This document shows, in pieces, positions 20,770-40,660 of a DNA stretch of 64,000 bases (the stretch's first letter is position 1; each line of letters begins with the position of its first letter). A program made the translations under genes and the position numbers. Under the pieces are notes generated by a model, which was not told the origin of the DNA, did no database searches, and was given only the letters and a program-made list of their open reading frames with translations. This stretch comes from Patescibacteria group bacterium (lineage in GTDB: Bacteria > Patescibacteriota > Minisyncoccia > Phycocordibacterales > JBHPGB01), in contig JBHPGB010000003.1 in the NCBI GenBank assembly GCA_042571085.1, positions 6,261 through 70,260 of the forward strand. The letters are read 5' to 3'.

Positions 20770-21042
20770 CTAAGGTGTTTTTTTGGGAGCTTCGAAATTG
20801 ATCAGAGATAGATGGTGAAATGCATCACCGCCACATAAACATTCTTCATGACCTCTGATACGTCCCCATATTCTTCCTAATTTATCAAAACCAACACACT
20901 CTATAATTTCCATGTGCCAATAGCCACCACTTGTCGATGTGAACAGGTCACCCTTCTCTATATCAGTCCCGTCTACTTCAGCTGATGCTATTATGACGTG
21001 GTGGCCAGTTCGCGTTTTTACAATATTGATTTTTTTGGACAT
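20770..21042 (-). CDS. Hypothetical Cys/His-containing protein (90 aa)
   Basis: ORF only; HEECLCGGDAFHH. Confidence 0.4.
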   Translation of the reverse strand: MSKKINIVKTRTGHHVIIASAEVDGTDIEKGDLFTSTSGGYWHMEIIECVGFDKLGRIWGRIRGHEECLCGGDAFHHLSLINFEAPKKTP

Positions 21043-21095
21043 TTGCCTGTACCTCCATTGCTATGTCGTATCCTAACTAAATACTATCAATGCCT

Positions 21096-22370
21096 CTAAA
21101 GATAATCAAGCGGATTCATATAAGCATTATATGATGCAACAGGAATACGCGCATTTGCACAGTTGGTTATTTTTTTGATGTCACCTAGGCGAACAATTTG
21201 AACTCCTTGGCTAGCATATACGGTAAAGTGTAAATGTGGACCCGTTGAGTAGCCAGTATTGCCGCTATAGCCAATTACATCGCCTGTAACCACTGTTTGC
21301 CCGGCAGATGCTTTTGTAAGAGATAGATGGGCGTACATAGTACTAAGACCATTATTATGCTTTACGAGCACCCATTTACCATATGAATAGCAGCCAGGAT
21401 ATTGATCTGTGTCCCCTGTTTCGACCACAGTCCCAGACAAGGCTGCTTTTATTGGCGTACCAACAGAAGCACGGAAATCAATCCCGTTGTGTCCGCTGCC
21501 GCTATATGCGCCTGATTTTGCAAATTTAGTGTTACCAAAATATTGTGTGACATATATGGAATCAAGTGGCCATCGCAGTATCCCCTTTCCTACCGGTGGC
21601 AATAAGTTTGGATCAATCGCGATGCGAAGCTCAGACTCCAATGCATTCAACTCTTGTTCAAATTGTTCACGCAGTCTCTTTTTTTCCGCTAAGATTTTTT
21701 CGTATTCCGCTTCCTGGTTTTTTGTTTCTTTGAGCAAAGTATTTTTTTTGTAGCGTTCATTATCTGCAATAGATTTTTGATCAGATAGTTTTGATTTGTA
21801 TGACACTAAATTACTGCGCTCGTCTTCAATTTCTGTTTTTTTGTTTTCAAGTGTTTCTTTCAAACTTTCAAGCTCTTTCACGCTGTCACTCATGCCTTTT
21901 TGGAAACGCTGATATCCTTCTACATCATCCCAGAAGTTGGAAATATTTCTGCTCGATAGCGCTAACTCAGCAAGTGACAATTCTTCTATTTCATTTATGT
22001 TTCTGATTGTATCTTTTATAACATCCACATTCTCTCCTATGTCACGTTTTTTATTACCAATTTCCAATTCTAGTTTTTCAATACTTAAGGACGATGCATA
22101 TATTTCATTTTGAGTTACTTTGATATTTGTTGACAGTTTTCTACGAGTTATGTCTATAGTCTTTACTTCTTTGTTCAAACTTTCTTTCTCTTTTGATGTT
22201 TCGTTTAGTTGTGTTTGATACTCATTTATTTCTTGTTCCAATTTTTCAATTTCTACTTCCCTGCCTGAAATTTTATTTTTCAAATCATCAATAAGGCCCG
22301 CATGCGTAGGAGCAACGGACATTGTAAGTAATACAAATGTTGAAATTAAAATCAGATAAATTTTTTGCAT
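21096..22370 (-). CDS. M23 family metallopeptidase with N-terminal coiled coil (EnvC/NlpD-like murein hydrolase)
   Basis: 424 aa; signal/TM, long coiled coil, M23 motifs HNGIDFRA ... GPHLHF. Confidence 0.8.
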   Translation of the reverse strand: MQKIYLILISTFVLLTMSVAPTHAGLIDDLKNKISGREVEIEKLEQEINEYQTQLNETSKEKESLNKEVKTIDITRRKLSTNIKVTQNEIYASSLSIEKLELEIGNKKRDIGENVDVIKDTIRNINEIEELSLAELALSSRNISNFWDDVEGYQRFQKGMSDSVKELESLKETLENKKTEIEDERSNLVSYKSKLSDQKSIADNERYKKNTLLKETKNQEAEYEKILAEKKRLREQFEQELNALESELRIAIDPNLLPPVGKGILRWPLDSIYVTQYFGNTKFAKSGAYSGSGHNGIDFRASVGTPIKAALSGTVVETGDTDQYPGCYSYGKWVLVKHNNGLSTMYAHLSLTKASAGQTVVTGDVIGYSGNTGYSTGPHLHFTVYASQGVQIVRLGDIKKITNCANARIPVASYNAYMNPLDYL

Positions 22371-22420
22371 GAAAATGTTGTTTTACAATAGTATTTTATC
22401 AATATTTAGCTTTAATTACA

Positions 22421-22460
22421 AAAAAATAAAAAACCCGCTACTGTTTTTATGTGGCGGGAT
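22421..22460 (-). terminator. Intrinsic terminator for gltX (stem CCCGCUAC/GUGGCGGG with G-U pairs, then T-runs on the minus strand)
   Basis: Read on the minus strand: hairpin followed by TTTTTTATTTTTTT. Confidence 0.65.
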
Positions 22461-22479
22461 TTTTATTGTTAAATAAATT

Positions 22480-23790
22480 TTAAGAAACTGATTCAAGACG
22501 TTTGACAGCTTCTTCTTTTCCTAAAATGTAAGCGAGTGTGAATGGGTCTGGAGATTTGTCGCGTCCTGAAAGTGCCATACGCATAGGCCAGAGAACGTTA
22601 CCTCTCCCCTCTTTTTCAGCATAATCCCAAATTGTTTCCTTGATTGTATCTGGGCTTGTGAAGTCTGCATCTTCCAGCAGCTCCGCAACTTTCTTTAGAT
22701 GTGTTTTTGCTTGTTCAAGCGAATCAGTTTTCCAAACAAGTTTTTCAGGATTTATTTCCTGTGCATTAGTGTAATAATCAAACTCACCCTCCCTTTTCAT
22801 TTCTTCTATGTCACTCCATTTTGAAATTCGCTCCATTATAATTGGAGTTATTTTTTTGAGTATATCACTCGGAATTTCTGGCAAATATTTTTTTATGGTT
22901 TGTTCTGTGATGTCTTCGGGGGTATTTGCGAGGTATTGTTTGTTTGTCCAATTAAGCTTATCTTGATTGAATACAGCACCTCCTTTTTGTACTTTTTCTA
23001 GAGTAAATTCTTCAATTAATTCTTCCATAGAAAAGAATTCCCTATCATCTCCAGGGTTCCATCCAATCATTGCGAGAAAGTTTACCAGCGCCTCTGGCAG
23101 GTATCCTTGATTGATATATTCGCTCACCGAAACAGCGCCGTGGCGTTTTGAGAGCTTGCTCTTATCAGTAGCTAGAATGAGTGGAATATGGGCATATTTA
23201 GGCTCTGGAGCGCCTATTGCGCGTTGTATAAGGATTTGTCTAGGGGTATTAGAAATACCATCCTCTCCGCGGATTACATGTGTGACCCCCATTTCAAAAT
23301 CGTCCACAACTACAGCAAGGTGGTATAGTGGTGAGTCCATATCTTTTGCAATTACAAAATCTTTAAGCTCGGTCGTATCAAACTCAATGTCACCACGGAT
23401 TAGATCATTGAACTTTACTTTTTCATTTGGATTTTTGAAACGAATTACTTTTCCAGTACCATCAGCATTTTCTTCTGCTTCGTATGCTGATCCGTCACCA
23501 ATCATTTTTTCTAAATATTTTTTATATACATCTCCCCTCTCAGACTGACGCACAATTTTGTTTTCATTATCCCAGTCTATACCAAGTGATTTTAATCCAT
23601 TCAAAATGTCTTCCTCAAACTCTTTTGTGCTGCGCTCTTTGTCTGTGTCTTCAATTCGCAAAAGAAATTCACCGCCATGTTTGCGTGCGTAAAGAAAATT
23701 GAACAGTGCTGTTCGCGCAGATCCAATATGCAAAAACCCCGTCGGAGACGGTGCAAAACGAGTTATTATTTTTTCTTGACTTTGTGACAT
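22480..23790 (-). CDS. gltX: Glutamyl-tRNA synthetase (short form)
   Basis: 436 aa; HIGS (PSPTGFLHIGSARTALFN) and KLSKRHG (KMSKS-like) motifs. Confidence 0.85.
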   Translation of the reverse strand: MSQSQEKIITRFAPSPTGFLHIGSARTALFNFLYARKHGGEFLLRIEDTDKERSTKEFEEDILNGLKSLGIDWDNENKIVRQSERGDVYKKYLEKMIGDGSAYEAEENADGTGKVIRFKNPNEKVKFNDLIRGDIEFDTTELKDFVIAKDMDSPLYHLAVVVDDFEMGVTHVIRGEDGISNTPRQILIQRAIGAPEPKYAHIPLILATDKSKLSKRHGAVSVSEYINQGYLPEALVNFLAMIGWNPGDDREFFSMEELIEEFTLEKVQKGGAVFNQDKLNWTNKQYLANTPEDITEQTIKKYLPEIPSDILKKITPIIMERISKWSDIEEMKREGEFDYYTNAQEINPEKLVWKTDSLEQAKTHLKKVAELLEDADFTSPDTIKETIWDYAEKEGRGNVLWPMRMALSGRDKSPDPFTLAYILGKEEAVKRLESVS

Positions 23791-23873
23791 ATATGTTTTA
23801 ATCTGAACGTCAGATGTTTCTTTGGCTATAAGCCAATAATCGTAATTGTATCAGAGAACGAAGGAGAAATAAA

Positions 23874-24416
23874 ATGGTAGAAGAACAGAAAGACAGCGGT
23901 GTGTTTTTGGTTGATGAGTTTAATCACTTTACACCTCACAGTGTCTGTATTGACCCAAACCCAACTAGGTTGACGACAGAAATGCTTGGGCGGTTTGCTG
24001 TTACTGGTGGAGACTGGTCCGAAAAAAGGATGCACAGAAATGTTTTAAGCGCATTGTTGTGTCTTGATAAATTTCGTATAGAAATTTCTCTTTCTGTGGA
24101 TTTGGAGCATAAAAAATTAACCCCAAGTGTTGTTTGGGGGACAATTAGTTTTGGCGGGGTCGAAATTCTGCGATTCTGTAAAGATGGTTTATATATGTTA
24201 TCCCAGTGGCCACAGATGATTGGTGTGTACGATCTTGATCCCACACAAATGAGTGTTGATGATTGGCGAGATTTCTTTGCTCAGGGACTACAAAAGGAAA
24301 TTGATAAACGTGCAGCGGTAGCAAGTAAAACAAAAAAGCAGTCAATTGATTTGCTAGACACATTGTTTGGTGCACAGACAGCATTAAAACCAGGCCTTGA
24401 GGAAGAGGAGACCTAG
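23874..24416 (+). CDS. Hypothetical protein (180 aa)
   Basis: ORF only. Confidence 0.4.
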   Translation: MVEEQKDSGVFLVDEFNHFTPHSVCIDPNPTRLTTEMLGRFAVTGGDWSEKRMHRNVLSALLCLDKFRIEISLSVDLEHKKLTPSVVWGTISFGGVEILRFCKDGLYMLSQWPQMIGVYDLDPTQMSVDDWRDFFAQGLQKEIDKRAAVASKTKKQSIDLLDTLFGAQTALKPGLEEEET

Positions 24417-24430
24417 GCACACAGAGTAAT

Positions 24431-24468
24431 ACCAGCAAGACACAGGATTGTGTCTTGCTGGTATTTTG
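24431..24468. terminator. Bidirectional terminator: 15-bp perfect hairpin TACCAGCAAGACACA ggat TGTGTCTTGCTGGTA
   Basis: Between convergent genes; flanked by T-rich tracts. Confidence 0.8.
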
Positions 24469-24483
24469 TTTAATCTCAATTTT

Positions 24484-25611
24484 CTACTTCTCGTGTTTTA
24501 GTGCGAGGTTAAGGATTTCGCGGGCTATTTTTTCTCCGGCATCTGGGCGGGCAAATTCTTTTGCAGCTTGCTTCATTTCTTCTCTTGTATTTTCGTCGTC
24601 CATAAGTCTATCAATTGATGACATGAGCACATGTGGACTAAGATTTTTTTCTTCCACAACTAAACACGCTCCGCTTCTGGCATAAGTAAATGCGTTGCTG
24701 CGTTGATCGTGACTTATCTCCTCTGGGATTGGAATAATAATACTTGGTAAGCCCCAAGTAGCGATTTCAAATATAGAGGATCCGGCACGCGATATTACAA
24801 CATCAGAAATACCAGCAGACATCTTCATTGCAAGGTCGTTTAGATATTCAAAAGGTTTGTATCTATTTTTGTTTGGTGAGTCTTGCAGTATCACTGAAGC
24901 TGTACCAGAAATTTCTTTAAAGTGTTCTTTTCCTGTTTGGTGTATAACTTGATATTTTTTTACTAGCTCAGGCAATACGCCAAGTATTGCCTCATTTATT
25001 CTTTGTGCACCTTGTGATCCGCCGAGTATTAAGATAACAGGAGTTTGTTTTTCTAATTTCAAAAACTCATGAGCACCACTTGTTTGTGGGATTGAAATAT
25101 TTTTACGTATTGGATTTCCTGTGAGCGCGACACGATCTTCTGGGAAATATTGTGCTGCATCCGGATATGAAACCGCAATTCGTTTTGCAAACTTCCCTGC
25201 CCACTTATTTACTTTTCCGGGCTTTGAATCAGATTCATGTATGATTACTGGAATTCCTAAAAAGCGAGCAGCGAAAAGTGTCGGAAAGCTACCGTAACCC
25301 CCTTTGCCGAATACTACGTCAGGGAAGATTCTATACAATTGCCACGTTGCTTTAATGATTCCTGTTGCTGTTTTAAAAATATCAAAGAAGTTTTTGATTG
25401 AGAAATGTTTACGAACTTTACCAGCTGGAGCTTGTTTGAATTCTATACCGTGCTCAAAAAGCTCTTTTTTATCATATGGATTAGGTGCAACAAAATACAT
25501 TTGTGTTTCCAACAAATGTTCTTTTGATGCCAGTTCATTTATTTCTTCAGCTATTGCGATAATTGGATAAAAGTGTCCACCTGTACCGCCACCTGTAAAT
25601 AGAATTTTCAT
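24484..25611 (-). CDS. murG: UDP-GlcNAc:undecaprenyl-PP-MurNAc-pentapeptide GlcNAc transferase MurG
   Basis: 375 aa; GGTGGH N-terminal motif; GT-B fold; follows ftsW. Confidence 0.9.
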   Translation of the reverse strand: MKILFTGGGTGGHFYPIIAIAEEINELASKEHLLETQMYFVAPNPYDKKELFEHGIEFKQAPAGKVRKHFSIKNFFDIFKTATGIIKATWQLYRIFPDVVFGKGGYGSFPTLFAARFLGIPVIIHESDSKPGKVNKWAGKFAKRIAVSYPDAAQYFPEDRVALTGNPIRKNISIPQTSGAHEFLKLEKQTPVILILGGSQGAQRINEAILGVLPELVKKYQVIHQTGKEHFKEISGTASVILQDSPNKNRYKPFEYLNDLAMKMSAGISDVVISRAGSSIFEIATWGLPSIIIPIPEEISHDQRSNAFTYARSGACLVVEEKNLSPHVLMSSIDRLMDDENTREEMKQAAKEFARPDAGEKIAREILNLALKHEK

Positions 25612-25726
25612 CCCGTTAGAGATAGGAAAGATAATTTCCGTATCTGATTATGTGTTGTTAAAAAATTGACCAAAATCTCGCCATGTTCCATTTTGCCACA
25701 AAAGACAGCTTGGATCTCTAACGGGA
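25611..25726 (-). mobile_element. TIR element copy A (116 bp): 13-bp terminal inverted repeats TCCCGTTAGAGAT; TGAA/TTCA 4-bp direct repeats at 25607..25610 and 25727..25730; abuts the murG start codon
   Basis: Both ends read directly from the sequence. The terminal A of the element plus the duplicated TGAA rebuilds the murG ATG. Confidence 0.55.
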
Positions 25727-25734
25727 TTCATAAA

Positions 25735-26838
25735 TTAAAAGTTTGTTTTATGTCTTGAAATATTTAGTACAATTCCTATCATTGCGAGTGTGATCAGCAT
25801 TGCCGTACCGCCGTGACTAATAAATATTAGCGGTAATCCCGTGAGTGGAAATACCCCCAAAATTGAAGCTATGTTGGTAAATGATTGTACTACGATCATT
25901 ATAACAATCCCGGAAGCAAGAAGTCCACTAAAGCTGTCTGGAGCAGATTTGGCGATATGCAGACCGCGTAAGAGGAATAATAAGAAAAGGACGATTATCA
26001 CACTACTTCCCATGAAGCCGAATTCTTCGCTAGCTACTGCAAATACGGAATCCCCTATTGGCTCAGGTAAGAAATTGAATTTTTGTACTGATTGCCCAAA
26101 CCCTTTTCCAAACATTTCTCCAGATCCTATCGCAATTAGCGACTGCTGTATTTGCCACCCTGCTCCTTGCGGGTCACGGCCAGGGTCAACAAATGTTAAC
26201 ATTCTGTCCATTACATATGGCCTGCTAAATGCGAGTGCCGTAAGCATTAAAATACCAACTAAAATTAAAGAAAAAAGATGCTTCCATTTACCGCCAGCTA
26301 TTAGAAAAATAGCACAAGAGGTTGCAGCAATTACAAGAAATGTCCCGGTGTCTGGTTGTGACAAAAGAAGAAATCCATTAATCATTAACACAACACACAG
26401 TGGCATAAATCCCCACTTAATTGTGTGCACCCTGTTTCGTATTGATGCATACCACGCAGACAAATATAGTATCGTACCAAACTTTAAAAATTCTGCTGGC
26501 TGAAAAGAGAATGGTCCAATAGATATCCAACGCTTTGCTCCACCATGTTCAAATCCAAAAAGAGGAATTAGTGTAAGAACAGTAAGTACGATTGATAATA
26601 CAAAAATATGTAAAGCATATTTTTTCCAGTTCCTATAATATATTTTTGAAAAAAAAGTCATCGCACCGAGCCCCAGCACGATGCCAAAAAAAACTTGATT
26701 AAAAACAATTGCAGAGAAGCCAGCGCCTTCACGTGCGTGTAAGCCAAGAGAGGCTGATATAAATATAAAAAAACCGCTACACAGTAGAACCAGAACGATT
26801 ATGAGAAATGTTTTGTCTATGGGATTATATGTATTCAT
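25735..26838 (-). CDS. ftsW: Peptidoglycan glycosyltransferase FtsW (SEDS family)
   Basis: 367 aa; about 10 TM helices; SEDS signature region; context mraY-ftsW-murG. Confidence 0.85.
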   Translation of the reverse strand: MNTYNPIDKTFLIIVLVLLCSGFFIFISASLGLHAREGAGFSAIVFNQVFFGIVLGLGAMTFFSKIYYRNWKKYALHIFVLSIVLTVLTLIPLFGFEHGGAKRWISIGPFSFQPAEFLKFGTILYLSAWYASIRNRVHTIKWGFMPLCVVLMINGFLLLSQPDTGTFLVIAATSCAIFLIAGGKWKHLFSLILVGILMLTALAFSRPYVMDRMLTFVDPGRDPQGAGWQIQQSLIAIGSGEMFGKGFGQSVQKFNFLPEPIGDSVFAVASEEFGFMGSSVIIVLFLLFLLRGLHIAKSAPDSFSGLLASGIVIMIVVQSFTNIASILGVFPLTGLPLIFISHGGTAMLITLAMIGIVLNISRHKTNF

Positions 26839-28938: not shown

Positions 28939-29490
28939 TTAAGCCACTTCCTCTTCTTCCTCTTTTTGTTCTTCAAAACTCTCTATTTCCACTTTCACAT
29001 TTTCATAATCTGGCAGCTCTGTAATATCTGTTATACCAAGATGAGCGAAAAGTTCAAATGTTGGTTTGTATAGAAAGCTTCTTTGGTCTTCAGGGTTGCT
29101 CGTGCGTTCAACAAGTCCGCGCACCATCAAGTTGCGTAGAATGAAGCCTGAGTTTACACCACGAATGTAGTCTACCCTACTTTTTGCAATTGGTCCGAGA
29201 TATAAAACTATAGCAAGTGTTTCCAGACCTGCTTTACCCAAGTCTTTGTTCAGCTCTTCTTTTACGAGCGCTTCAATAATGTCTCCAAATTCAGGAGCAG
29301 TACCAATCATAACCACATCGTCTTTTTTAATTAATCTTATTCCCCTGTCGCTTAGGCTTTCTTTCAATTCAGAAACAGCATTAAGAGCATCTTCTTCTTG
29401 CACGCTCAACATAGCAGCCAAATTTTTTATTTTTGTTGGCCCGTTTTGGTAAAAAAGTATTGCTTCTATTTTTTTTGATAATTCATTCAT
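28939..29490 (-). CDS. scpB: Segregation and condensation protein B
   Basis: 183 aa; two winged-helix repeats; adjacent to scpA. Confidence 0.85.
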   Translation of the reverse strand: MNELSKKIEAILFYQNGPTKIKNLAAMLSVQEEDALNAVSELKESLSDRGIRLIKKDDVVMIGTAPEFGDIIEALVKEELNKDLGKAGLETLAIVLYLGPIAKSRVDYIRGVNSGFILRNLMVRGLVERTSNPEDQRSFLYKPTFELFAHLGITDITELPDYENVKVEIESFEEQKEEEEEVA

Positions 29491-29659
29491 CCCGTTAGAG
29501 ATAGGAAATAAAATTTCCGTATCTGATTATGTATTGTTAAACATTGATCAAAATCTCATTATATTCCATTTTGCCATAAAAGACAGTTTGGACCTGCCCG
29601 CCACTGCCTAATTCGTCCCAAATGTCAGTCAGGCGATGGCAGGCGGGTATCTAACGGGA
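29490..29659 (-). mobile_element. TIR element copy B (170 bp) carrying a nested 57-nt GC-clamped hairpin module; TTCA direct repeats; abuts the scpB start codon
   Basis: Same ends as copy A; insertion CCTGCCCGCCACTGCC...GGCAGGCGGGTA at about 29596..29652. Confidence 0.55.
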
Positions 29660-29672
29660 TTCATGTTGTTTT

Positions 29673-31455: not shown

Positions 31456-32608
31456 TTATCAGTGTAACAAATAATGTTGCCACTGCAGCAAATATGAAAA
31501 TAAATTTTATGCTAAAGAAAAATGAAATTATAAATGCAATACCAATCATTAATATCCTCCCAATATTTAGTGACATTTCTCGTAATACAGTATATTCGTC
31601 CACATAATGTCCATTATCTGCAGCTTGGTCATATTGTGTTGTATCAACAGATGTGCGATGTATTACTCTACCTACATTGTGGTATGTGTCTGCGATAAAA
31701 ACCTGGAATGCTGTTTCTATGAAAAGTTTAACAATCCATCCTGTGGTGTTAAATATTGATCCAATAACTACCATACGTTTTTGATTCCAGGTATCAAGTA
31801 AATTTCCAATGAAAGTTCGTATTATTATAATTGCAAAAATTGTTAATGAGGATACGATACCTACTGTGAGATATTTTTCATCAAATAGCATGAATATAAA
31901 AATAGGCCATATTATTGCTGATACAATACTTTGAAACCCATCAGCAGTGAATGCTATAAACATACCCCTGTTTTCTTTGTGAAAAAGTTTTTTGAAAGTT
32001 TCCAAGTACCCCCAACTATAATGTTCTCGTGTACTTTCTATAAAAAAAGCTGGAATTATACTGAATAAAAACAAAAAGGCTGAAACAAGGAAAGCTCCAC
32101 TGAAAGTGAAATATGCAATCAGTGCGCCACCGACAAATGGCATTATTGTACCTATTATTTGAGCAATATTACGAAGAAGAGAGATTTGTCGACCACGAAT
32201 GTCTTCGTCGGTAAATTTTGCAAAGTCTACATGATATGGAAGCCAGTATAATAATTTATATATAATAATTGCTAATGTGAATATGACAAGAATAAGATAA
32301 GGGTTATAATCCCAAAAATATAGAGAAAAAATTGATATTAGAGCGAAAGGTACCGCAATTATCATCATTTTTTTTAGGCTAAAGCTGTTTAATATTCTTG
32401 ATGCAATTGGATATAAAAAAAGGACCAAACCAAAATTTATTGCATAGATGATGAGAACTGCTGTGAAAGAATTATCAAATTTTGTAAAAAAGAATATTGG
32501 TAGGAACAATCCAATTACTCCAAACGCAGCCTGTAGTAAAACGCGCCCAGTGTATAGCCAGGCAAGATTTTTTGATATTTTTAAATTTTTGTAATCAAAC
32601 AATTTCAT
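31430..32608 (-). CDS. Polytopic membrane transporter (MFS-like), hypothetical
   Basis: 392 aa; about 12 TM helices. Confidence 0.45.
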   Translation of the reverse strand: MKLFDYKNLKISKNLAWLYTGRVLLQAAFGVIGLFLPIFFFTKFDNSFTAVLIIYAINFGLVLFLYPIASRILNSFSLKKMMIIAVPFALISIFSLYFWDYNPYLILVIFTLAIIIYKLLYWLPYHVDFAKFTDEDIRGRQISLLRNIAQIIGTIMPFVGGALIAYFTFSGAFLVSAFLFLFSIIPAFFIESTREHYSWGYLETFKKLFHKENRGMFIAFTADGFQSIVSAIIWPIFIFMLFDEKYLTVGIVSSLTIFAIIIIRTFIGNLLDTWNQKRMVVIGSIFNTTGWIVKLFIETAFQVFIADTYHNVGRVIHRTSVDTTQYDQAADNGHYVDEYTVLREMSLNIGRILMIGIAFIISFFFSIKFIFIFAAVATLFVTLINEQHDMAH

Positions 32609-32778
32609 CCCGTTAGAGATAGGAAATGTAATTTCCGTATCTTATTAATGGTAAATTGATTATGTATAAATATTTTATCAGTTTCCCGCTTGCCACAAAA
32701 GACAGTTTGGACCTGCCCGCCACTGCCTAATTCGTCCCAAATGTCAGTCAGGCGATGGCAGGCGGGTATCTAACGGGA
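32608..32778 (-). mobile_element. TIR element copy C (171 bp) with the same nested hairpin module as copy B; TTCA direct repeats; abuts the start codon of the transporter gene
   Basis: Nested module 32716..32772 is 100% identical to that in copy B. Confidence 0.55.
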
Positions 32779-32785
32779 TTCATTT

Positions 32786-33058
32786 TTATGCGCAAATAGT
32801 ATTTTTATATCCTGGAAAATAATTTTGTATTTCTTTTAAATTAAACTCACTTAAGATTTGCTCCGCCGCTTCCCTCTCAAGCAGAAACTCAAATGATTTT
32901 TCTATTAATTCTTCCGGTGTTATTTTACCATTTGATAGTTTAGCATAATAATCTTTATCTAGTACGACGGTATGCTTTGTTTTGTCGGAAATCTTTACTT
33001 CAAAAGTGAAATGTTCTTCATTCTCATCAATTTTTTGTATTTGCAGATTGTGAGTCAT
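32786..33058 (-). CDS. Hypothetical protein (90 aa)
   Basis: ORF only. Confidence 0.4.
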   Translation of the reverse strand: MTHNLQIQKIDENEEHFTFEVKISDKTKHTVVLDKDYYAKLSNGKITPEELIEKSFEFLLEREAAEQILSEFNLKEIQNYFPGYKNTICA

Positions 33059-33063: not shown

Positions 33064-34059
33064 TTAAATGATACTAAATATCTTTAGTATGAAAAATACA
33101 TACAATACCAAAAACATCATTCCTTCCCAGTGATATATTCGACGTGATATTCCAACTATAATAAACAGGAATGTTGCAAGGGCCATAATCGGTACACCAA
33201 TTGAAAGCGTACTATGGTCTACTGAGAGTGATCCAAATAATCCAGGGAGCCCAACCACAAAGAGGGCGTTGAAGGAGTTTGAACCTAAGATATTACCAAC
33301 CGCCACTTCAGATTTGCCTTGTAAGACAGCACGGCCGGATACAGCCAGCTCTGGTAATGATGTACCAATAGCAATTGCTGAAATTGAAATTAGTCCTGGA
33401 GCGATGTCTAAAAGTGTTGAAAGTTCTATTACAGATTCAATAAGATATTTTGCGCCCAATAATACCGCACAGAGACCGGCCACAAAAAGTATCTGGTCTT
33501 TAAAATGAGCAACTCTGCGTAATACATATATAAGGCCCCAGTATTCCCTCTCTGCAAATTTCTGTAGCTCTTTACTTTTTTCTGCAACAACAGTACTGGC
33601 CTTCTTTTCACCACCCGCAAGAGAATATACAAAATAGATTAGATATGTGATAAACAAGAGAATAGATTCAATTTGTAGCACTTGCCCGTCGTATACAATT
33701 CCCAAAAATAGTACTGTTGAAATTGCAAACAGCGGTAACTCCAAATCAATAAGACTGCGAGTAACTTCCAAGCGCCTTCCCATGATTGCGATAATACCCA
33801 AGATGAGTAGTATGTTTGCAATGTTGGAACCGGTAGCGTTTGCGACAACGACTTCCGGTACTCCTTGAATTATCGCGGCGAATGCGGATACTAATTCTGG
33901 TAGTGATGTACCAATACCAACAATAAGCGCACCAATCACGAATGGCGAGAAACCGAGTCGAATTCCCAGGCGCTCGGCGCCGTGCAAAAACCAGTGAGAA
34001 CCTTTCACTAAAGCAGCGAGAGATACCACGAAAATGAGTATCCATGTAAATATTTCCAT
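33064..34059 (-). CDS. Ca2+/cation antiporter (CaCA family, YrbG-like)
   Basis: 331 aa; two alpha-repeats GTSLPELVSAF and GTSLPELAVSG with GNILGSN. Confidence 0.75.
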   Translation of the reverse strand: MEIFTWILIFVVSLAALVKGSHWFLHGAERLGIRLGFSPFVIGALIVGIGTSLPELVSAFAAIIQGVPEVVVANATGSNIANILLILGIIAIMGRRLEVTRSLIDLELPLFAISTVLFLGIVYDGQVLQIESILLFITYLIYFVYSLAGGEKKASTVVAEKSKELQKFAEREYWGLIYVLRRVAHFKDQILFVAGLCAVLLGAKYLIESVIELSTLLDIAPGLISISAIAIGTSLPELAVSGRAVLQGKSEVAVGNILGSNSFNALFVVGLPGLFGSLSVDHSTLSIGVPIMALATFLFIIVGISRRIYHWEGMMFLVLYVFFILKIFSII

Positions 34060-34163
34060 ACCTGTATTGTAGCAATTTATTATGAGATTTTGTAGGTTTT
34101 GTGCAAAAATTGGTTAATTAAATAATCTACAAGATTAACTCATTATGGTAATATAATGATGTC

Positions 34164-34739
34164 ATGAGAAAAATTATTCTAGATATTGAAACACAAAACT
34201 CTTTTCAGGAGGTGGGCTCAAGCAGCGCTGTTGATTTGGATATTTCCCTGCTCGTTATTTATGATTATGAAGATGGAAAATATAAAACATTTATGGAAAA
34301 AGATTTTCCTGAGCTTTGGAAAATTCTTGAGCAGACCGACCTGATTATTGGTTACAACTCAGATCACTTTGATATTCCACTCTTAAATAAATATTACTCG
34401 GGAGACCTTTCTCAAATTAAGAGCCTGGATTTGCTCGTACCAATCCGTGAATCGCTTGGGCGGCGTGTGAGGCTTGATTCAGTGGCTGCTGGGACCCTCG
34501 GGAAAAACAAAAGTGGTAATGGGCTTGAGGCGATTGAGTGGTGGAAGAATGGCGAAATAGATAAAATTAAAAAATATTGTGAGCAAGATGTGCGTGTGAC
34601 AAAAGAGGTGTATGAATATGCAACGGAGCATAAAAAATTAAAATATAAAGAGATAGGACAAATTATTGAGTTTGATATAGATACTAATGGATGGGATGAA
34701 GGTAGTGGTGGTGGGATGAATTATACATTGCCATTTTAA
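34164..34739 (+). CDS. DEDD-family 3'-5' exonuclease-like protein
   Basis: 191 aa; Exo I LDIET, Exo II YNSDHFDIPLL, Exo III-like YCEQDVRVT. Confidence 0.5.
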   Translation: MRKIILDIETQNSFQEVGSSSAVDLDISLLVIYDYEDGKYKTFMEKDFPELWKILEQTDLIIGYNSDHFDIPLLNKYYSGDLSQIKSLDLLVPIRESLGRRVRLDSVAAGTLGKNKSGNGLEAIEWWKNGEIDKIKKYCEQDVRVTKEVYEYATEHKKLKYKEIGQIIEFDIDTNGWDEGSGGGMNYTLPF

Positions 34740-34741
34740 AT

Positions 34742-35040
34742 ATATAGACGTGAAAAATGCCAGAGCAAGCTCCGACATTCTTCAGTGTAGTCACCTCCCG
34801 GAGGAGATAACTACCCTTTTATTATATTCAATATTGAAATCTGGTCAATACTTTTTGTAGATAATTGTGGATAACTCCCAGTGCCTATTCTTTGTAATCT
34901 GACTATTCCACCAGACGTGAAAAATGCCAGAGCAAGCTCCGACATTCTTCAGTGTAATTATTTTCCCGGAGGAAAACAATTACTCTCCTAATATATCAAT
35001 TTCTGAGATTCGCGCAAGTCCTATTTTCAATAGAGTATAA
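34742..35040 (+). repeat. Family-2 composite repeat, locus 1 (unit1 plus unit2; each unit begins with the invariant 42 nt AGACGTGAAAAATGCCAGAGCAAGCTCCGACATTCTTCAGTG)
   Basis: About 90% identical to 37322..37652; unit2 is also present alone at 39198..39372. Confidence 0.7.
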
Positions 35041-35046
35041 ATATTG

Positions 35047-36717
35047 TTATTTGTCAAATTCAGGTAAAAATAGCCTTGCGATGCGTAACTCTTCAAATGA
35101 GTATTTTTCTTTGAGTGCTTTGTATACTGGTGAGAGTTTTGTGTCTCCAGATTTTAGAAAAGCCTTGTGCATTTCCATGAGCGCTTTTTGTTTTGGTTTA
35201 AATGTACTTAAATCAAGCTTTGGATCTTTCTCTTTTAGTTTTTCAAGATGCCCAAGGATGGTGTTTTCAACCACCCCTCTCTTCTTTGCTAGTTGTTTTA
35301 AATTTAATCCCTTTTCTATCAGAAGTCTTGTCTTTTCATATGTAGAGATTTTCTCTTCAACCTTGTCTACTTTTTTATTCTTATTTTTCTCGATTTCTTT
35401 TTTATTTATAGTACCCCCACATTTAAGCACAAAATCGTTGTGCATTTTTTCCATATCTCCATCAGAAAAACGACCTATTACCTTACTCCACTTTTCAGAT
35501 TCTTTTAGAAGGTGTTCATTGATTTGAGCCACTCTTGGGTGCACTGCGAAAGCCATTTCGTTTATACCAGAAAGAAGAAGACCTCCGAGCGTGCGTAGAC
35601 GCGAGAGAGCCACGTATCCTTGTCCTGGCACGAAAGATTTAGACAAATCAATTTCTGCTGCATCCATACTCAAGCCCTGGCTTTTGTGTATCGTAATTGC
35701 CCACGCAAGCCGCAGTGGCAATTGCTCCACCATGCCTAGCACTTTCCCATCCTCCTCAACAGACCATTCCGAAGGTGAAACATGAATTAGTTCACCGGAA
35801 AAAGTTTTGACTACTGGCATGCCATCTTCAAAACCTTTTACAACACCAAGCGTGCCGTTAACGTATCCTTCCTCAAAATTGTTTTTTATAAACATCACCA
35901 CCGCGTCCTTCTTTAGTTTGAGTGTTTCGGATGTCAAAATACTCTTTTTGAGTGAGCTTATGATAGTGGCCCGCCCTTTTGAAGACATCTCAAATTTATA
36001 CTCTGTGCCTGGTAGCTTATCCAATTCTTTTTGATTTAGCTCGTCTACATCGGCATTGTGAGTATACAGGCGCGTCGGTGTGATGTTTCCTTTTATGCTC
36101 GTCTGCTCAGAAAGAATATTACGCGTTTTGTCGCTCACAGAGCCGCCTCGTATTTCATTCAGGATACTTTCTAAAGTACTGTCACCTTGGCGAAATTGTT
36201 CCTCTAAATAACAGACACGAACATCCATTTCTCTCCACGCCTCTGATGCGATAGCGAATTCTGGCTCAGTGTATCCGCGTACAATTGGCGGCAATTGAAA
36301 GAAGTCACCCGAAAGCACCACCTGCATCCCTCCAAACGGCTCAGGGTTACGTTTCATCGCTTTACACACCCTGTTTACATTATCTAGCAGCTGCGGTGAA
36401 AGCATGGAAACCTCGTCTATTAAAAGTATCTGTGTTTTTTCAAACCTGGTCCACAGGTGCTTCTTTCCCTCCATTGAATCCAAATCCATTTCAGATATGT
36501 GTTCTTTAATACCAATGCCACTCCATGAGTGAATGGTGGTGCCTCCTATATGAGTCGCCGCGATACCCGTTGAGGCTGTCACACCGATACTGACTCCCCT
36601 ATCTTTTAAATATGAAATATACTCATTTAAAACATGAGTTTTACCACTACCGGCGGCCCCTGTCAGATATACGTTTCTACCAGCCTTTAAAATTTTTAAC
36701 GCTTCGGCTTGTTTCAT
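35047..36717 (-). CDS. SF1B DNA helicase (PIF1/RecD-like) with C-terminal HTH-like tail
   Basis: 556 aa; Walker A GAAGSGKTH, Walker B LLIDEVSM, GDFFQLPPI, ITIHKSQGLS. Confidence 0.7.
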   Translation of the reverse strand: MKQAEALKILKAGRNVYLTGAAGSGKTHVLNEYISYLKDRGVSIGVTASTGIAATHIGGTTIHSWSGIGIKEHISEMDLDSMEGKKHLWTRFEKTQILLIDEVSMLSPQLLDNVNRVCKAMKRNPEPFGGMQVVLSGDFFQLPPIVRGYTEPEFAIASEAWREMDVRVCYLEEQFRQGDSTLESILNEIRGGSVSDKTRNILSEQTSIKGNITPTRLYTHNADVDELNQKELDKLPGTEYKFEMSSKGRATIISSLKKSILTSETLKLKKDAVVMFIKNNFEEGYVNGTLGVVKGFEDGMPVVKTFSGELIHVSPSEWSVEEDGKVLGMVEQLPLRLAWAITIHKSQGLSMDAAEIDLSKSFVPGQGYVALSRLRTLGGLLLSGINEMAFAVHPRVAQINEHLLKESEKWSKVIGRFSDGDMEKMHNDFVLKCGGTINKKEIEKNKNKKVDKVEEKISTYEKTRLLIEKGLNLKQLAKKRGVVENTILGHLEKLKEKDPKLDLSTFKPKQKALMEMHKAFLKSGDTKLSPVYKALKEKYSFEELRIARLFLPEFDK

Positions 36718-36725
36718 AGATGAAA

Positions 36726-37295
36726 TTATTCCATTAGGAAATCCAAGATATTATCTGCCCACTTCTTGTTTTTTGCTGAGTATAGGAAATATTTATCCCC
36801 GAATTCTTCCTTCAGTTTTTTTGTAATTACACTTTTTTCTTTCTGATTCAGTTTGTCCGATTTATTTGCAATTACTACATAGTTTATACCGACATCCTCT
36901 AGGATATCTATCATCTCATAATCAAATTCTGTACATCCAATTCTTGAATCAACAATCAGCGCTACTGTACGAATCGGAGCATTAGATTCTGTTAGATACC
37001 AAATAATTAATTTTCTCAGTTTTTCTCTGGCACTTTGTGATATTTTGGCAAAACCATAACCAGGCAGATCAACGAAATATATAGAATCATTCACAAGGAA
37101 GAAATTTATCTCTCGTGTTTTACCAGGAATAGAACTTGTTTTTACTAAATCTTTTTTTCCAAGCAAAGAATTGATAACGCTTGATTTGCCGACATTAGAA
37201 CGGCCAACAAATGCAATGTTTGCTTTGTTGTCATTTAGGATTTCATCAGTTCCCCGTATTCCTTTTATAAATTGTACGGATTTGATAGTTTTCAT
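36726..37295 (-). CDS. engB: Ribosome biogenesis GTP-binding protein EngB/YihA
   Basis: 189 aa; G1 GRSNVGKSS; TREINFF. Confidence 0.9.
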   Translation of the reverse strand: MKTIKSVQFIKGIRGTDEILNDNKANIAFVGRSNVGKSSVINSLLGKKDLVKTSSIPGKTREINFFLVNDSIYFVDLPGYGFAKISQSAREKLRKLIIWYLTESNAPIRTVALIVDSRIGCTEFDYEMIDILEDVGINYVVIANKSDKLNQKEKSVITKKLKEEFGDKYFLYSAKNKKWADNILDFLME

Positions 37296-37321
37296 ATGAC
37301 TCTTATTCTAACATACCTTAC

Positions 37322-37652
37322 CTATAGACGTGAAAAATGCCAGAGCAAGCTCCGACATTCTTCAGTGCAGCTACCTCCCGGAGGAGATAACTACCTTTCT
37401 ATTATATTTAATATTGAAATCTGGTCAATACTTTTCTGTGCATAACTGTGGATAACTACCAATGCCTATTCTTTGTACCCTGACTATTTCACCAGACGTG
37501 AAAAATGCCAGAGCAAGCTCCGACATTCTTCAGTGTAATTATTTTCCCGGAGGAAAACAATTACTCTCCTAATATATCAATTTCTGAGATTCACGCAAGT
37601 CCTATTTTCAATAGAATATAAATATAAAAATATGTCAAATTTAGACAAAATG
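37322..37652 (+). repeat. Family-2 composite repeat, locus 2 (unit1 plus unit2) between engB and pyk
   Basis: Direct copy of locus 1. Confidence 0.7.
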
Positions 37653-37664
37653 GCAAGTTTTAAT

Positions 37665-39092
37665 TTATACCTCAAGAACGAATACCATATTTGTACTACC
37701 TGGTTCTCCGAATGGAATTCCTGCAGATATAATAATCTTGTCCCCTTTTTTAACGGAACGGTTTCCCAAAGCGATTTTCTTTATATCATCAATAACATCA
37801 AGTACATGTGTAAAATCACCAATTAATTCAGAATAACATCCAAACAAAAGCGCTAATTGGTTTCTTACGTGTGGTTTGGGTGTAAGAGCTATGATTGGTT
37901 GTTTTGGCTTAAATCTCGATATCATTTTTGCAGTAGATCCAGATTCAGTAAGTGCAACAATTGCTTTTGCATCAACGTCTCGTGCGGTCAAAACAACAGC
38001 TCGAGTAACAGCATCAACAGTAGTATAAGGTTTTTCAGTAATACAGTTGATTTCTCTCAAGTTTGATACACTGTCTACTTTTTGTGCTATAGAGGTCATC
38101 ATCCGAATTGCTTCAACAGGATACTTACCAAGAGTTGTTTCTTCTGATAGCATCACAGCGTCTGTGCCATCTAAGATAGCATTAGCAACATCACTTACCT
38201 CAGCTCTTGTTGGTGTCGGTATATCAATCATTGATTCAAGCATTTGTGTTGCAACAATAACAGGCTTACCTATCAAATGACACTTTTTAATGATTCTTTT
38301 TTGAAGCATTGGTACATTTTGCGCTGGAACCTCAATCGCCAAATCCCCTCTTGCTACCATTATCCCATCAGCATGCTCAATGATAGAATCTAGATTATCT
38401 ATCGCTTCCATAGTTTCAATTTTTGCGATGATGTTTACATGCTCACTCTTGTGTTTTTTCAGTAATGATCGTAGTGTTTTGATATCTTTTAGATTACGAA
38501 CAAAAGAAAGGGCTACGAAGTCGACACCTTTACTTAATCCAAATGCGAGATCTTTTTTGTCCTTTGCTGTGACGGCGCTGATTTTTAAGTTTGCACCTGG
38601 TATATTAACTCCTCGACGACCTTTTGTTTCGCCACCAACGACCACCTTACACACGATTTCTTCCTTTGTTGTTTTTTCTATTTTTAGTTTCTTTTTACCA
38701 TCATCAAGAAGAATGAACACTCCTTTCTGTACTTGTGATGGAAGTTCTTTGTAATTGATATGTGCATTGTTTTCATCACCAATGATTTTGCGTGTAGTGA
38801 GTGTAAAAGTAGAACCTTTTTTAAGCACCACTTTTTCTTTGTAGAAATCACCTATGCGAATTTTAGGACCGGCAAGATCTTGCAGTACTGCAATCGGTTT
38901 GTTTAATTCCTTAGATATTTTTCTTGCAGTATTAATGCGCCCATTGTGTTCATTATGATTTCCATGAGAGAAATTAAGACGCACAACGTTCATACCTGCT
39001 TCAGCCATTTTTTTCATCGTATTTTCATTTTCGGAGACTGGTCCAATTGTTGCCACTATTTTTACATTCTTTGATAAAAACTTATTTTTCAT
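37665..39092 (-). CDS. pyk: Pyruvate kinase
   Basis: 475 aa; PK barrel and C-terminal domain; MVARGDLAIE motif. Confidence 0.9.
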   Translation of the reverse strand: MKNKFLSKNVKIVATIGPVSENENTMKKMAEAGMNVVRLNFSHGNHNEHNGRINTARKISKELNKPIAVLQDLAGPKIRIGDFYKEKVVLKKGSTFTLTTRKIIGDENNAHINYKELPSQVQKGVFILLDDGKKKLKIEKTTKEEIVCKVVVGGETKGRRGVNIPGANLKISAVTAKDKKDLAFGLSKGVDFVALSFVRNLKDIKTLRSLLKKHKSEHVNIIAKIETMEAIDNLDSIIEHADGIMVARGDLAIEVPAQNVPMLQKRIIKKCHLIGKPVIVATQMLESMIDIPTPTRAEVSDVANAILDGTDAVMLSEETTLGKYPVEAIRMMTSIAQKVDSVSNLREINCITEKPYTTVDAVTRAVVLTARDVDAKAIVALTESGSTAKMISRFKPKQPIIALTPKPHVRNQLALLFGCYSELIGDFTHVLDVIDDIKKIALGNRSVKKGDKIIISAGIPFGEPGSTNMVFVLEV

Positions 39093-39197
39093 AAACTATT
39101 ATTTGTTTGATTAATATAAAAAAATAAAAAGGCGCCATTGGCGTCATTTTTACTCCCCACTTGTTATTTGACTAACCTGGTGTTCATGTGCAAATCC

Positions 39198-39372
39198 GGG
39201 CGTGAAAAATGCCAGAGCAAGCTCCGACATTCTTCAGTGTAATCATTTAATTATTTCCCGGAGGAAACAGTTAAACAATTACTCCCCTAATATATCAATT
39301 TCTGAGATTTGCGCAAGCCCTATTTTCAATTGAGTATAAATATCAAAATATGTCAAATTGAGGTAAGTTTAG
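39198..39372 (+). repeat. Family-2 repeat, locus 3 (unit2 type only)
   Basis: Invariant 42-nt head plus a conserved tail TATATCAATTTCTGAGATT..GCGCAAG.CCTATTTTCAAT.GAGTATAAATAT. Confidence 0.65.
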
Positions 39373-39437
39373 TATAAAAAAATCGCACCAGTGACCCTTA
39401 CGGGTTTGGTGCGAGTATTCTGCTGAGTGTTTATACC

Positions 39438-40103
39438 TCAGCTTGTGACTTCTTGCATAATCATGTTTACAGCTTTTCTGATTACATCTTGAAGCTGATC
39501 AGATGTGATGTATGGTTCGTAATTATGCGGATAGACATCATTGATCGCTATTTGGCCACTAAACCCATCCAGGGTTATTGAGCTGATAACCCTATCACTA
39601 CTAGTATCCTTTATGTCAACACGAAAACAATCTGTGTCATCTTCTAACTTACTAATATACCCTTCCGCGCAGAACCCTTTATGAGACAATTCCTTCATAA
39701 ATTTTGGATTAAGTACTCGGGAAAGTATTTTAGTTGCAGCTTCGTCTCTGTGTTCATCTCTACGTGAAATCAAGCCCGTGGCACCATGCTCAGGCGCCCT
39801 AACCTTTTCCACACCTAGGAGTATTTCCTTGATGTGTTCAGGGTTCGCTGTGCTAAGGCCTCTCACATGATAAGTACGTCTCTGCGCGTCACCCAGATCA
39901 TTTGTATCTATGGCCATTTCCATGGCATCCTTTTCTTCACAGGGGATACAAATATCCGACACGTAATCCATCAAGGTTTTCAAACGCCGGAGGCTCAGTA
40001 CCCCGTTTTCACTCTTTAGCACAAGTGTCACACTTTGTAGTGGATGCAAACGGCCTATGCGAGATACAGTCCTATCAGTTATATTTTTCATACGTTCTCC
40101 CAA
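39438..40103 (-). CDS. Hypothetical protein (221 aa), GC-atypical (about 50% GC versus about 37% in neighbours)
   Basis: ORF; compositional anomaly counted directly (51 of 99 in a sampled stretch); no recognisable domain. Confidence 0.5.
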   Translation of the reverse strand: MGERMKNITDRTVSRIGRLHPLQSVTLVLKSENGVLSLRRLKTLMDYVSDICIPCEEKDAMEMAIDTNDLGDAQRRTYHVRGLSTANPEHIKEILLGVEKVRAPEHGATGLISRRDEHRDEAATKILSRVLNPKFMKELSHKGFCAEGYISKLEDDTDCFRVDIKDTSSDRVISSITLDGFSGQIAINDVYPHNYEPYITSDQLQDVIRKAVNMIMQEVTS

Positions 40104-40335
40104 TATCCAATGTTGTTTAAATTGTACTTTCCGGTGTCAATAATACTTCATAATGAGCCATTCGTCAAGTGTGTTTATCCATAAAACAGACTGTATTTTT
40201 TCAGCTCATTTTTTGATTCTGTGCAATCAGGCAAAATACATTCTACTAAGGCCCAAAAATTGCGTGAATGATTCATTTCTATCAAATGATACAATTCATG
40301 TACGATTATATAGTCTTGTAATTTTTATAAAAAAA

Positions 40336-40362
40336 CCGGCCATGTGGCCGGCTTTACTAGTT
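40336..40362 (-). terminator. Intrinsic terminator CCGGCC atgt GGCCGG with a T-run on the minus strand, after the 92-aa gene
   Basis: Hairpin plus TTTTTTT on the minus strand. Confidence 0.7.
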
Positions 40363-40381
40363 TATAGGTTGTGAGTGAAAT

Positions 40382-40660
40382 TCAGCTGAGTTCAGGTCTT
40401 GTGACATCCCAAGAGTCGATGTAAAGCTTGTCCTCATGTTGGTCAACCTCAAACGGAACACACTCCACAAGGTCCATGTTGATATCCTGCGAACATTTAA
40501 TAAGGTACTTTGATATCTCATCAGCCTCTTCAGGGGACGCTGCTTTAATACAAACCTGGATTTGGTCTATGTTAGTTGCCCGGGTTATTAGGGCGACCAG
40601 TGAATTTTGGGCTGTGTATAAAATGCTATGATATTGCGCTTTAAGCTCTCTTGCATTCAT
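40382..40660 (-). CDS. Hypothetical protein (92 aa), GC-elevated
   Basis: ORF with its own terminator. Confidence 0.45.
   Translation of the reverse strand: MNARELKAQYHSILYTAQNSLVALITRATNIDQIQVCIKAASPEEADEISKYLIKCSQDINMDLVECVPFEVDQHEDKLYIDSWDVTRPELS

Follow-up and report, generated by a model that had tools for sequence, protein, structure and literature searches.

Two-hairpin repeat units as candidate minus-strand small-RNA genes in a Patescibacteria genome

Small RNAs (sRNAs) encoded by several sibling genes in one genome have been described in Listeria (LhrC1-5), Vibrio (Qrr1-5), and Neisseria (NgncR_162/163) (review PMC4211561; LhrC PMC4132741). The window analysed here is a 64,000-nt stretch of a Patescibacteria metagenome-assembled genome (MAG; contig JBHPGB010000003.1, positions 6,261 to 70,260), and it contained five copies of a repeated unit at three loci around the genes for a PIF1 helicase, an EngB-like GTPase, and pyruvate kinase (pyk). 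The units were similar to the sibling sRNAs in forming several homologous small genes, some of them in tandem, each with its own predicted promoter and intrinsic terminator. They also shared with them a conserved core, differing upstream control regions, and a size well below 100 nt. By sequence inference, the region holds at least two homologous noncoding genes with their own promoter and terminator, as a sibling-sRNA family does.

The five units are probably independently transcribed small-RNA genes of two types, unit 1 and unit 2, which are encoded on the minus strand. Related units were present in three other genomes (L017, L021, and L022). To our knowledge, the regulatory RNAs of the Patescibacteria, or Candidate Phyla Radiation (CPR), are essentially uncharted, and a search of the literature on small or noncoding RNAs of these bacteria yielded no relevant results. 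The candidate family was cleanly delimited by clear promoters and terminators, covarying helices, and two putatively differently controlled siblings, and it offers concrete coordinates (Table 1) to metatranscriptomic or co-culture studies.

Architecture of the minus-strand units

Each unit was read on the minus strand, from 5' to 3', as a sigma-70-type promoter, a hairpin (H1), a linker, a second hairpin (H2), and a U-run. H1 was a perfect hairpin with a UCCG loop, and its stem had 12 bp in unit 1 and 13 bp in unit 2 and reached 20 bp at locus 3. In every copy, H1 began with a G located 6-7 nt past the -10 hexamer, and this G corresponded to the predicted +1. At locus 1, H1 of unit 1 was GUAGUUAUCUCC-UCCG-GGAGGUGACUAC, followed by the linker and by H2 with a CUUG loop and U5, and H1 of unit 2 was GUAAUUGUUUUCC-UCCG-GGAAAAUAAUUAC, followed by the linker and the H2 terminator. 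The unit-1 H1 of locus 2 differed from that of locus 1 at three positions, all of them U-A/U.G exchanges that kept the pairing only in the minus-strand RNA. The 20-bp stem of locus 3 was formed through 7-nt insertions on both arms, and the L017 ortholog had a short H1. The linker, ACACUGAA, was identical in all nine distinct copies. In the window, H2 was AAUGUCGGAG-CUUG-CUCUGGCAUU followed by UUUUU, and its base could be extended by pairing of GAAGAA with the U-run.

A first-pass annotation of the window had described three loci of direct repeats, the first two each with a tandem of two unit types and the third with the second type alone, each unit beginning with an identical 42-nt head. This arrangement was reproduced, and the reported coordinates were close to the blocks 34743-35069, 37323-37650, and 39196-39366 of the repeat finder. 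Identity between loci 1 and 2 was 91-95%. The 42-mer, AGACGTGAAAAATGCCAGAGCAAGCTCCGACATTCTTCAGTG, occurred five times at the three loci on the plus strand, with 0 expected (0 matches in 100 shuffles). Four occurrences were exact (34746-34787, 34913-34954, 37326-37367, and 37494-37535), and the fifth (39198-39239) had two mismatches, both within its first 3 bases. However, the 42-mer was the reverse complement of the linker, H2, the U-run, and CACGUCU, and it is therefore the tail (3' end) of each minus-strand unit and not the head. The small hairpin reported beside it was present, with a stem of 12-20 bp instead of 4-6 bp. All copies were intergenic and shared one orientation, as reported, except that the repeat at locus 1 was not purely intergenic and overlaps the 3' end of the helicase gene. 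The spacings between copies were 167, 2413, 168, and 1704 nt, in agreement with the earlier statement that regular spacing of the kind found in clustered regularly interspaced short palindromic repeats (CRISPR) was absent. The CRISPR/TIGR guide arrays were rejected as a class on this irregular spacing, on the separate promoter of each unit, and on the housekeeping neighbours.

The minus-strand RNA was predicted to fold with -35.8 to -40.7 kcal/mol (z -6.8 to -7.8), compared with -16.9 to -20.6 kcal/mol (z -1.9 to -2.7) for the plus strand of the same segments. The two strands differed because several pairs are G.U, which become A.C mismatches on the other strand. In all copies, H1 and H2 folded independently of each other, and neither the minimum-free-energy nor the centroid structures showed a competing pairing. 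The predicted product was a compact two-hairpin RNA of about 64-80 nt, with ends placed by the promoter spacing and the U-run. The repeated sRNA that had been listed among the first candidates was thus supported by the evidence, but on the minus strand and not on the strand used at that time.

A plus-strand sRNA or short peptide (MPEQAPTFFSV...) starting in the 42-mer can be given almost no weight. An ATG lies inside the 42-mer, and the plus strand has open reading frames (ORFs) of 36-43 aa, but the fold of this strand was weak, no promoter was found upstream and no terminator downstream, and its covariance-model matches did not exceed 22.5 bits. Furthermore, the ORF was frameshifted or absent in L021 and L022, where it was destroyed by one-base insertions in both arms (L021) and by a replaced stem (L021 and L022), which agrees with the earlier remark that no ORF is conserved. 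A type I toxin-antitoxin system was rejected because no ORF was conserved between copies or genomes.

H2 was a G+C-rich stem-loop followed directly by a U-run on the transcribed strand, as is expected of an intrinsic terminator. The stem was followed by U5 in the window copies and by U6-7 in unit 1 of L021 and L022, and the H2 of these two genomes was a textbook short G+C stem with U6-7. A perfectly paired version of H2 (AATGCCRGAGCTTGCTCYGGCATT) with A-/T-run flanks was located at orthologous gene ends of Rheinheimera/Chromatiaceae and Massilia (L001-L016). The occurrence of this H2-like 24-nt hairpin in Rheinheimera and Massilia is a case of convergence, and it supports the terminator reading. 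A scan of the genome collection with the hairpin, in which wobble changes were allowed, returned only unrelated proteobacterial terminators and no relatives, and a scan of the viral collection returned nothing.

The terminators also raised an account in which the units act only in cis, as promoter-terminator cassettes that would end the upstream mRNAs and restart or insulate the downstream genes, the hairpin RNA being a functionless by-product. The helicase and pyk genes had no other terminator before H2, and H2 is predicted to terminate these two mRNAs as well. At locus 2, the unit-2 promoter region begins 18 nt past the pyk stop, which leaves pyk no terminator of its own. The genes engB and pyk follow directly after loci 2 and 3, unrelated bacteria use the same hairpin as an ordinary terminator, and the engB promoter candidate paired by the scan tool, TTCACG-18-TAGAAT, overlaps the end of the 42-mer. 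However, every unit promoter has its own terminator within ~65 nt downstream and could not serve a downstream gene without read-through. No antiterminator pairing was present between H1 and H2, and no same-strand gene is located downstream at locus 1 or in L022. The units at locus 3 and in L022 were bracketed by separate terminators, so that at locus 3 one was already in place on each side. In addition, termination does not require H1, and yet H1 was conserved, with compensatory changes and an insertion on both sides, and punctuation would not easily explain the tandem duplication of two units with different promoters. We regard this account as unlikely. An attenuator or riboswitch leader was rejected because of the lack of competing pairings and of a downstream gene at locus 1 and in L022.

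The terminator of the 221-aa ORF upstream of locus 3 showed compensatory changes in L017 (TGCGCCA...TGGCGCA) and is predicted to insulate the locus-3 unit 2 from upstream transcription. The stem of the second hairpin, between this unit and the pyk start, was conserved in L017. Elsewhere in the window, a long palindrome (ACCCGCCAAACTTTT...AAAACTTAGGCGGGT) was present in two copies (1902-1947 and 12294-12339) and resembled strong bidirectional terminators, and a similar palindrome (ACCCGCCTCAATTTT...AAAATTGAGGCGGGT) was found in L018 (9906-9946).

The TTGCTC proposed earlier as a -35 hexamer for engB was not supported: it falls within the terminator hairpin, in the loop and the 3' arm, and is separated by 32 nt from the single good -10 before engB. 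As a separate observation, a -10-like TAGAAT or TACAAT was located 7-9 nt before the ATG of engB or the helicase gene in three genomes (window 37305-37295, engB; L021 408-426; L022 833-859). No Shine-Dalgarno sequence accompanied these hexamers, which suggests leaderless mRNAs.

Covariation and distribution among relatives

L017 was a single contig found by a hairpin scan of metagenomes, and its units were ~80-89% identical in the informative part. L021 and L022 were reached through helicase homologues (87% and 77% aa identity, respectively), and both contained the unit-2/unit-1 tandem. When a covariance model was built from six copies, 12 of 12 copies in the four genomes scored 70-96 bits and nothing else scored above 22.5 bits. 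The covariance-model search gave no further copies in the 64-kb window, and no copy was present in the 3.8 kb past its right end, which is covered by L027. Within 10 kb of the anchor genes, no copy was found in L018 and L020 (pyk, 75% and 64%) or in L025 and L026 (helicase, 66% and 68%). Distant blastn searches gave nothing against phages and one 47-nt chance match against plasmids. Exact-protein look-ups of the window's pyk, of a 155-aa ORF (1407-1874), and of P0121 gave no record.

Both helices covaried among the 12 copies, nine of them distinct. Standard pairs filled 99.2% of the cells, and eight pairs were changed on both sides. The observed values of pairing and double changes were reached in none of 500 shuffles, and pairing dropped to 47-65% when the 3' partners were slid by 1-3 columns. 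The same two helices were predicted by RNAalifold. The H1 loop was a UNCG tetraloop throughout, with UUCG in L022 and UCCG in the other three genomes.

The arms of the unit-1 H2 were AAAAAAAACGGG/CCCGUUUUUUU in L021 (also written AAAACGGG/CCCGUUUU) and AAAAAAUCGGG/CCCGAUUUUUU in L022 (also written AAUCGGG/CCCGAUU). In both, the stem was completely different from that of the window and yet fully compensated, and its loop (CUUG), the linker, and the UUUCAyGUCU at the end were retained. In unit 2 of L021, H2 was longer by one base pair, through an insertion on each arm. The unit-2 H2 was identical in the window, L017, and L022. In the window and L017, the unit-1 H2 was the same as the unit-2 H2, but in L021 and L022 it differed. 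The simplest account of the 42-mer invariance in this genome would be homogenisation (gene conversion) of the unit-1 3' end to that of unit 2, and the invariance is best explained without a special 42-nt signal. It provides a small worked example of gene conversion yielding an "invariant" repeat that mimics such a signal.

Homogenisation and duplication are also what would be expected of a selfish or neutral DNA module that duplicates locally, such as a duplication scar, a miniature inverted-repeat transposable element (MITE), or a repetitive extragenic palindrome (REP), with copies kept similar by gene conversion and an RNA that is not under selection. At locus 1, the left end of the repeat supplies the last five codons and the stop of the helicase gene (35047-35066). 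The C-terminus of the helicase was ...ARLFLPEFDK* in the window and ...ARLFLA* in L021 and L022, and the added codons and stop corresponded to the left end of a unit-2 copy (TTACCTGAATTTGACAAATAA; locus 3 counterpart CTTACCTCAATTTGACA). The locus-1 module is a derived duplicate that was fused onto the helicase 3' end and overwrote its stop codon. The unit-1 H2 was homogenised to that of unit 2 in this lineage, and the copies were clustered within 4.7 kb and coincided with synteny breaks among the relatives. However, terminal inverted repeats, target-site duplications, and an adjacent transposase were all absent, and the copies numbered only five, with none elsewhere in the 64 kb or the 3.8 kb beyond and no match in the phage and plasmid collections. 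Furthermore, the units persisted where proteins were only 77% identical, with the RNA nearly unchanged, diverging spacers, and compensatory stem changes. We regard such a DNA module as improbable; of the recombination or duplication idea raised in the first-pass annotation, the derived duplicate and the homogenised copies stood. That annotation had considered a duplication scar to be likelier if the 42-mer occurred only here and relatives lacked it, with no transcription, and three related genomes were found to carry the units.

The MITE and REP classes themselves were rejected because the unit ends have no inverted repeats and only five clustered copies exist. Integron attC sites were considered, as the repeats bracket gene blocks, and were rejected on the housekeeping content and the internal promoters, the core sites not having been formally tested. 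A different repeat family of ~130-nt elements was located at 25589-25740, 29486-29667, 32586-32786, and 57542-57694, presumably the first family of the earlier annotation. These elements had a 14-bp terminal inverted repeat (ATCCCGTTAGAGAT ... ATCTCTAACGGGAT) and an inner hairpin (AGGAAA...TTTCC), with z ~-3 on both strands, and could be MITE-like or a structured RNA.

When the window was compared with L017, positions 36645-37944 were 100% identical to 1-1300 of L017 (engB, locus 2, and the pyk 3' end), beyond which identity abruptly became 66-89%. The identity of locus 2 was rejected as a sign of purifying selection because the identical 1.3-kb tract also spans engB and the pyk 3' end. The tract could be a recent recombination between populations or a chimeric assembly. 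At locus 3, the RNA and the promoter hexamers were unchanged from L017 amid an intergenic background of 66-74% identity. The helicase block of the relatives was flanked by genes of mobile or addiction type, namely a zeta-toxin-like kinase and rve-type integrases (L021 2-106 and 2691-3260; L022 8015-8353; L024 41-1042), and the synteny around the RNA modules is therefore fluid.

Promoters and DnaA-box-like sites

The unit-1 promoters were the joint best sigma-70 matches in 34000-40500 and were among only 8 sites of at least 11/12 in the 64-kb window, compared with 2.9 in shuffles. When six copies from the four genomes were aligned, both unit types had invariant -35 and -10 blocks, with variable spacers and discriminators. 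Upstream of unit 2, the six copies shared four blocks: TTTGACA, TATAyT after a further 12 nt, GCTTGC as the -35, and AATTGnTATATT as the extended -10. The unit-2 promoter was not listed by the scan tool because its -35 matches at just 3/6 positions. The distal TTGACA-N12-TATACT was rejected as a sigma-70 promoter, as the 12-nt spacing does not fit, and AGGAGA was rejected as a conserved ribosome-binding site because of the variable spacers and discriminator.

The spacer between the units, upstream of unit 1, was diverged or partly deleted, yet the DnaA-box-like TTATCCACA was kept in all four genomes. It was mostly paired with a second 9-mer 1 nt apart (Table 1), and the last box ended 7-8 nt before the unit-1 -35. 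Two perfect boxes were present in L022 and one in L021. The consensus 9-mer, TTATNCACA, occurred 9 times in the window, compared with 3.8 expected. The perfect 9-mer occurred three times in ~70 kb of DNA from the relatives. Two of these three were the L022 pair upstream of unit 1, and the third, in L027, was the counterpart of a window box at 61732. Closely spaced pairs of sites are reportedly preferred by the DnaA of E. coli (PMC11317965). Unit 1 has consensus boxes at its promoter as DnaA-regulated promoters do, and control of unit 1 by DnaA through the boxes upstream of the -35 is a tentative proposal of at best rather low probability.

The window box at 61732-61740 (plus strand; L027 6104, minus strand) was intergenic and was directly followed by the hairpins TCCCAAGACCGTCTTGGGA and CGGCTCAACTGGGTTGAGCCG and a T-run. 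These hairpins had no sequence relation to the units.

The boxes were also considered at the DNA level, as parts of DnaA-titrating, regulatory, or recombination sites whose hairpins would form cruciforms or single-stranded DNA. The boxes are conserved and often form a closely spaced pair, and the GC skew falls from positive to negative values at about 8-26 kb, with a cumulative peak at ~19-25 kb, so that a replication landmark is not far. However, each module has just one or two boxes, in unit 1 only, and the skew pattern is terminus-like and not origin-like. The G.U-type pairs and the fold asymmetry point to one transcribed strand, and the conserved -35/-10 blocks and U-runs would have no role in a pure DNA site, which makes such an element very improbable. 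From the skew and the convergent gene orientation, the region 8000-26000 looks like a replication terminus region. An origin of replication (oriC) was rejected because of too few boxes and the terminus-like skew change.

The genes flanking the units were all on the minus strand except the exonuclease gene. The helicase, EngB, pyruvate kinase, and DEDD exonuclease named as neighbours in the first-pass annotation were supported by Pfam, and the nearest homologues carried the names Patescibacteria, Paceibacteria, or Parcubacteria.

Table 1. Predicted features of the three loci and neighbouring genes, in window coordinates
Feature	Position	Strand	Evidence and details
Unit-1 RNA, locus 1, predicted ~64 nt	34751..34814	-	Covariance-model match 96.4 bits; fold -39 kcal/mol, z -7.5 (+ strand -16.9)
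Unit-1 promoter, locus 1, TTGACC-16-TATAAT	34821..34848	-	11/12 match; conserved in L021 and L022
Tandem DnaA-box-like 9-mers, locus 1	34856..34874	-	TTATCCACA 34866-34874 and TTATCTACA 34856-34864; 7 nt upstream of unit-1 -35
Unit-2 RNA, locus 1, predicted ~66 nt	34918..34983	-	Covariance-model match 92.4 bits; fold -35.8 kcal/mol, z -6.95
Unit-2 proximal promoter, locus 1	34990..35017	-	-35 TTGCGC, 16-nt spacer, extended -10 TGaTATATT; read from sequence
Unit-2 distal conserved block, locus 1	35034..35066	-	TTACCTGAATTTGACA-N12-TATACT; overlaps last five codons and stop of helicase
Unit-1 RNA, locus 2	37331..37394	-	Covariance-model match 94.4 bits; fold -38.9 kcal/mol, z -7.8
Unit-1 promoter, locus 2, TTGACC-16-TATAAT	37401..37428	-	Sigma-70 promoter scan
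Tandem DnaA-box-like 9-mers, locus 2	37437..37455	-	TTATCCACA 37447-37455 and TTATGCACA 37437-37445
Unit-2 RNA, locus 2	37499..37564	-	Identical to locus-1 unit 2
Unit-2 promoter region, locus 2	37571..37647	-	Distal TTGACA 37633-37638; -35 TTGCGT 37593-37598; -10 TATATT 37571-37576
Unit-2 RNA, locus 3, predicted ~80 nt	39203..39282	-	Covariance-model match 70.5 bits; fold -40.7 kcal/mol, z -6.8
Unit-2 promoter region, locus 3	39289..39366	-	Distal TTGACA 39351-39356; TATACT 39333-39338; -35 TTGCGC 39311-39316; -10 TATATT 39289-39294
Separate terminator of upstream 221-aa ORF	39376..39414	-	TCGCACCA...TGGTGCGA then T7
Second, bidirectional terminator-like hairpin	39119..39146	.	GGCGCC-AAT-GGCGCC with A/T runs; between unit 2 and pyk start; scan lists + strand
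RNase_H_2/DEDD-type exonuclease	34164-34739	+	Pfam
PIF1 helicase with C-terminal HTH_40	35047-36717	-	Pfam
EngB-like GTPase	36726-37295	-	Pfam
Pyruvate kinase (pyk)	37665-39092	-	Pfam

Proposed function and comparison with known systems

In the proposed mechanism, each unit would be transcribed from its own sigma-70-type promoter, which is near-consensus in unit 1 and has an extended -10 (TGnTATATT) in unit 2. Transcription would start at the first G of H1 and stop at H2 and the U-run, giving a two-hairpin RNA protected at both ends. The units are most likely sibling trans-acting regulatory RNAs of differently controlled types, of which unit 1 would respond to DnaA and unit 2 to its other conserved upstream block. 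Such RNAs would pair with distant targets through the linker, with opening of the A/U-rich base of H2. Pairing through the linker was favoured because the linker, UACACUGAA, is the sole invariant stretch of the RNA that could be single-stranded, and it is put forward here as a doubtful part of the model. The near-fully double-stranded RNA may instead have a protein-binding or decoy role.

Several points weigh against the small-RNA interpretation. The covariation was counted on a model-fitted alignment, which favours structure, and transcription, RNA ends, and stability were all inferred. H2 was not listed by the terminator scan because its maximal stem absorbs the U-run; when fully extended, the stem buries the U-run, and just 5 U follow the G+C-rich part. 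The -35 of unit 2 is weak, with a 3/6 match. A simple terminator does not account for the conservation of the bases 3' of the U-run (CAyGUCU). If the lower part of H2 is paired, the RNA has almost no unpaired sequence left, an unusual state for a base-pairing sRNA. A search of 64 crude gene starts in the window, less than 1/10 of a genome, gave no significant complementary target, the best being -16.5 kcal/mol compared with a shuffled-seed median of -14.3. The comparison included four genomes in all, with L017 uninformative at locus 2 because of the shared 1.3-kb tract. No units were found near the helicase gene in relatives at 68% identity, and the family is therefore narrow and young.

In a more specific version, which we consider quite unlikely, unit 1 would be a DnaA-controlled riboregulator that tracks the state of replication initiation, accompanied by a differently regulated sibling with the same seed, or the RNA would be a protein decoy. 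If true, it would be the first functional regulatory RNA circuit described in CPR, and the host of the DnaA-controlled riboregulator would be a minimal-genome, episymbiotic Patescibacteria cell.

When the units were compared with Rfam 15, no family was matched at its gathering threshold, and the only such hit in the window was tRNA-Glu. The best sub-threshold matches were RAGATH-23 (21.9/92.6 bits), rli61 (21/50), and CRISPR-DR53 (17.5/45). RAGATH-23 (RF03099) is likewise a two-hairpin small RNA, and the match aligned H1 (GGUAGU...ACUACA) and a second hairpin, but the score reflects chance-level similarity and not membership.

Rho-independent terminators, including bidirectional ones, share with H2 the G+C-rich stem-loop, the U-run after it, and the A-rich run before it. 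Unlike a plain terminator, H2 belongs to a larger conserved unit that also has a dedicated promoter and another conserved hairpin, and in unit 2 H2 and 7-15 nt past the U-run were conserved far beyond the needs of a terminator. With DnaA-regulated promoters, unit 1 shares one or two consensus 9-mers, 1 nt apart, directly upstream of a strong promoter. Unlike in the known cases, the putatively regulated gene here would be a small RNA of a CPR bacterium.

The sibling sRNAs were the closest described systems, although no sequence or Rfam relation connects them with the units and the host is a Patescibacteria MAG. The sibling sRNAs carry C/U-rich accessible loops, whereas almost the whole RNA of the units would be double-stranded, with stable tetraloops (UNCG and CUUG). 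With its conserved DnaA boxes and CPR host, the system is modestly unusual and not of a new kind: the units appear to form a new, lineage-restricted, and narrowly distributed family of small-RNA genes, a kind that is already known.

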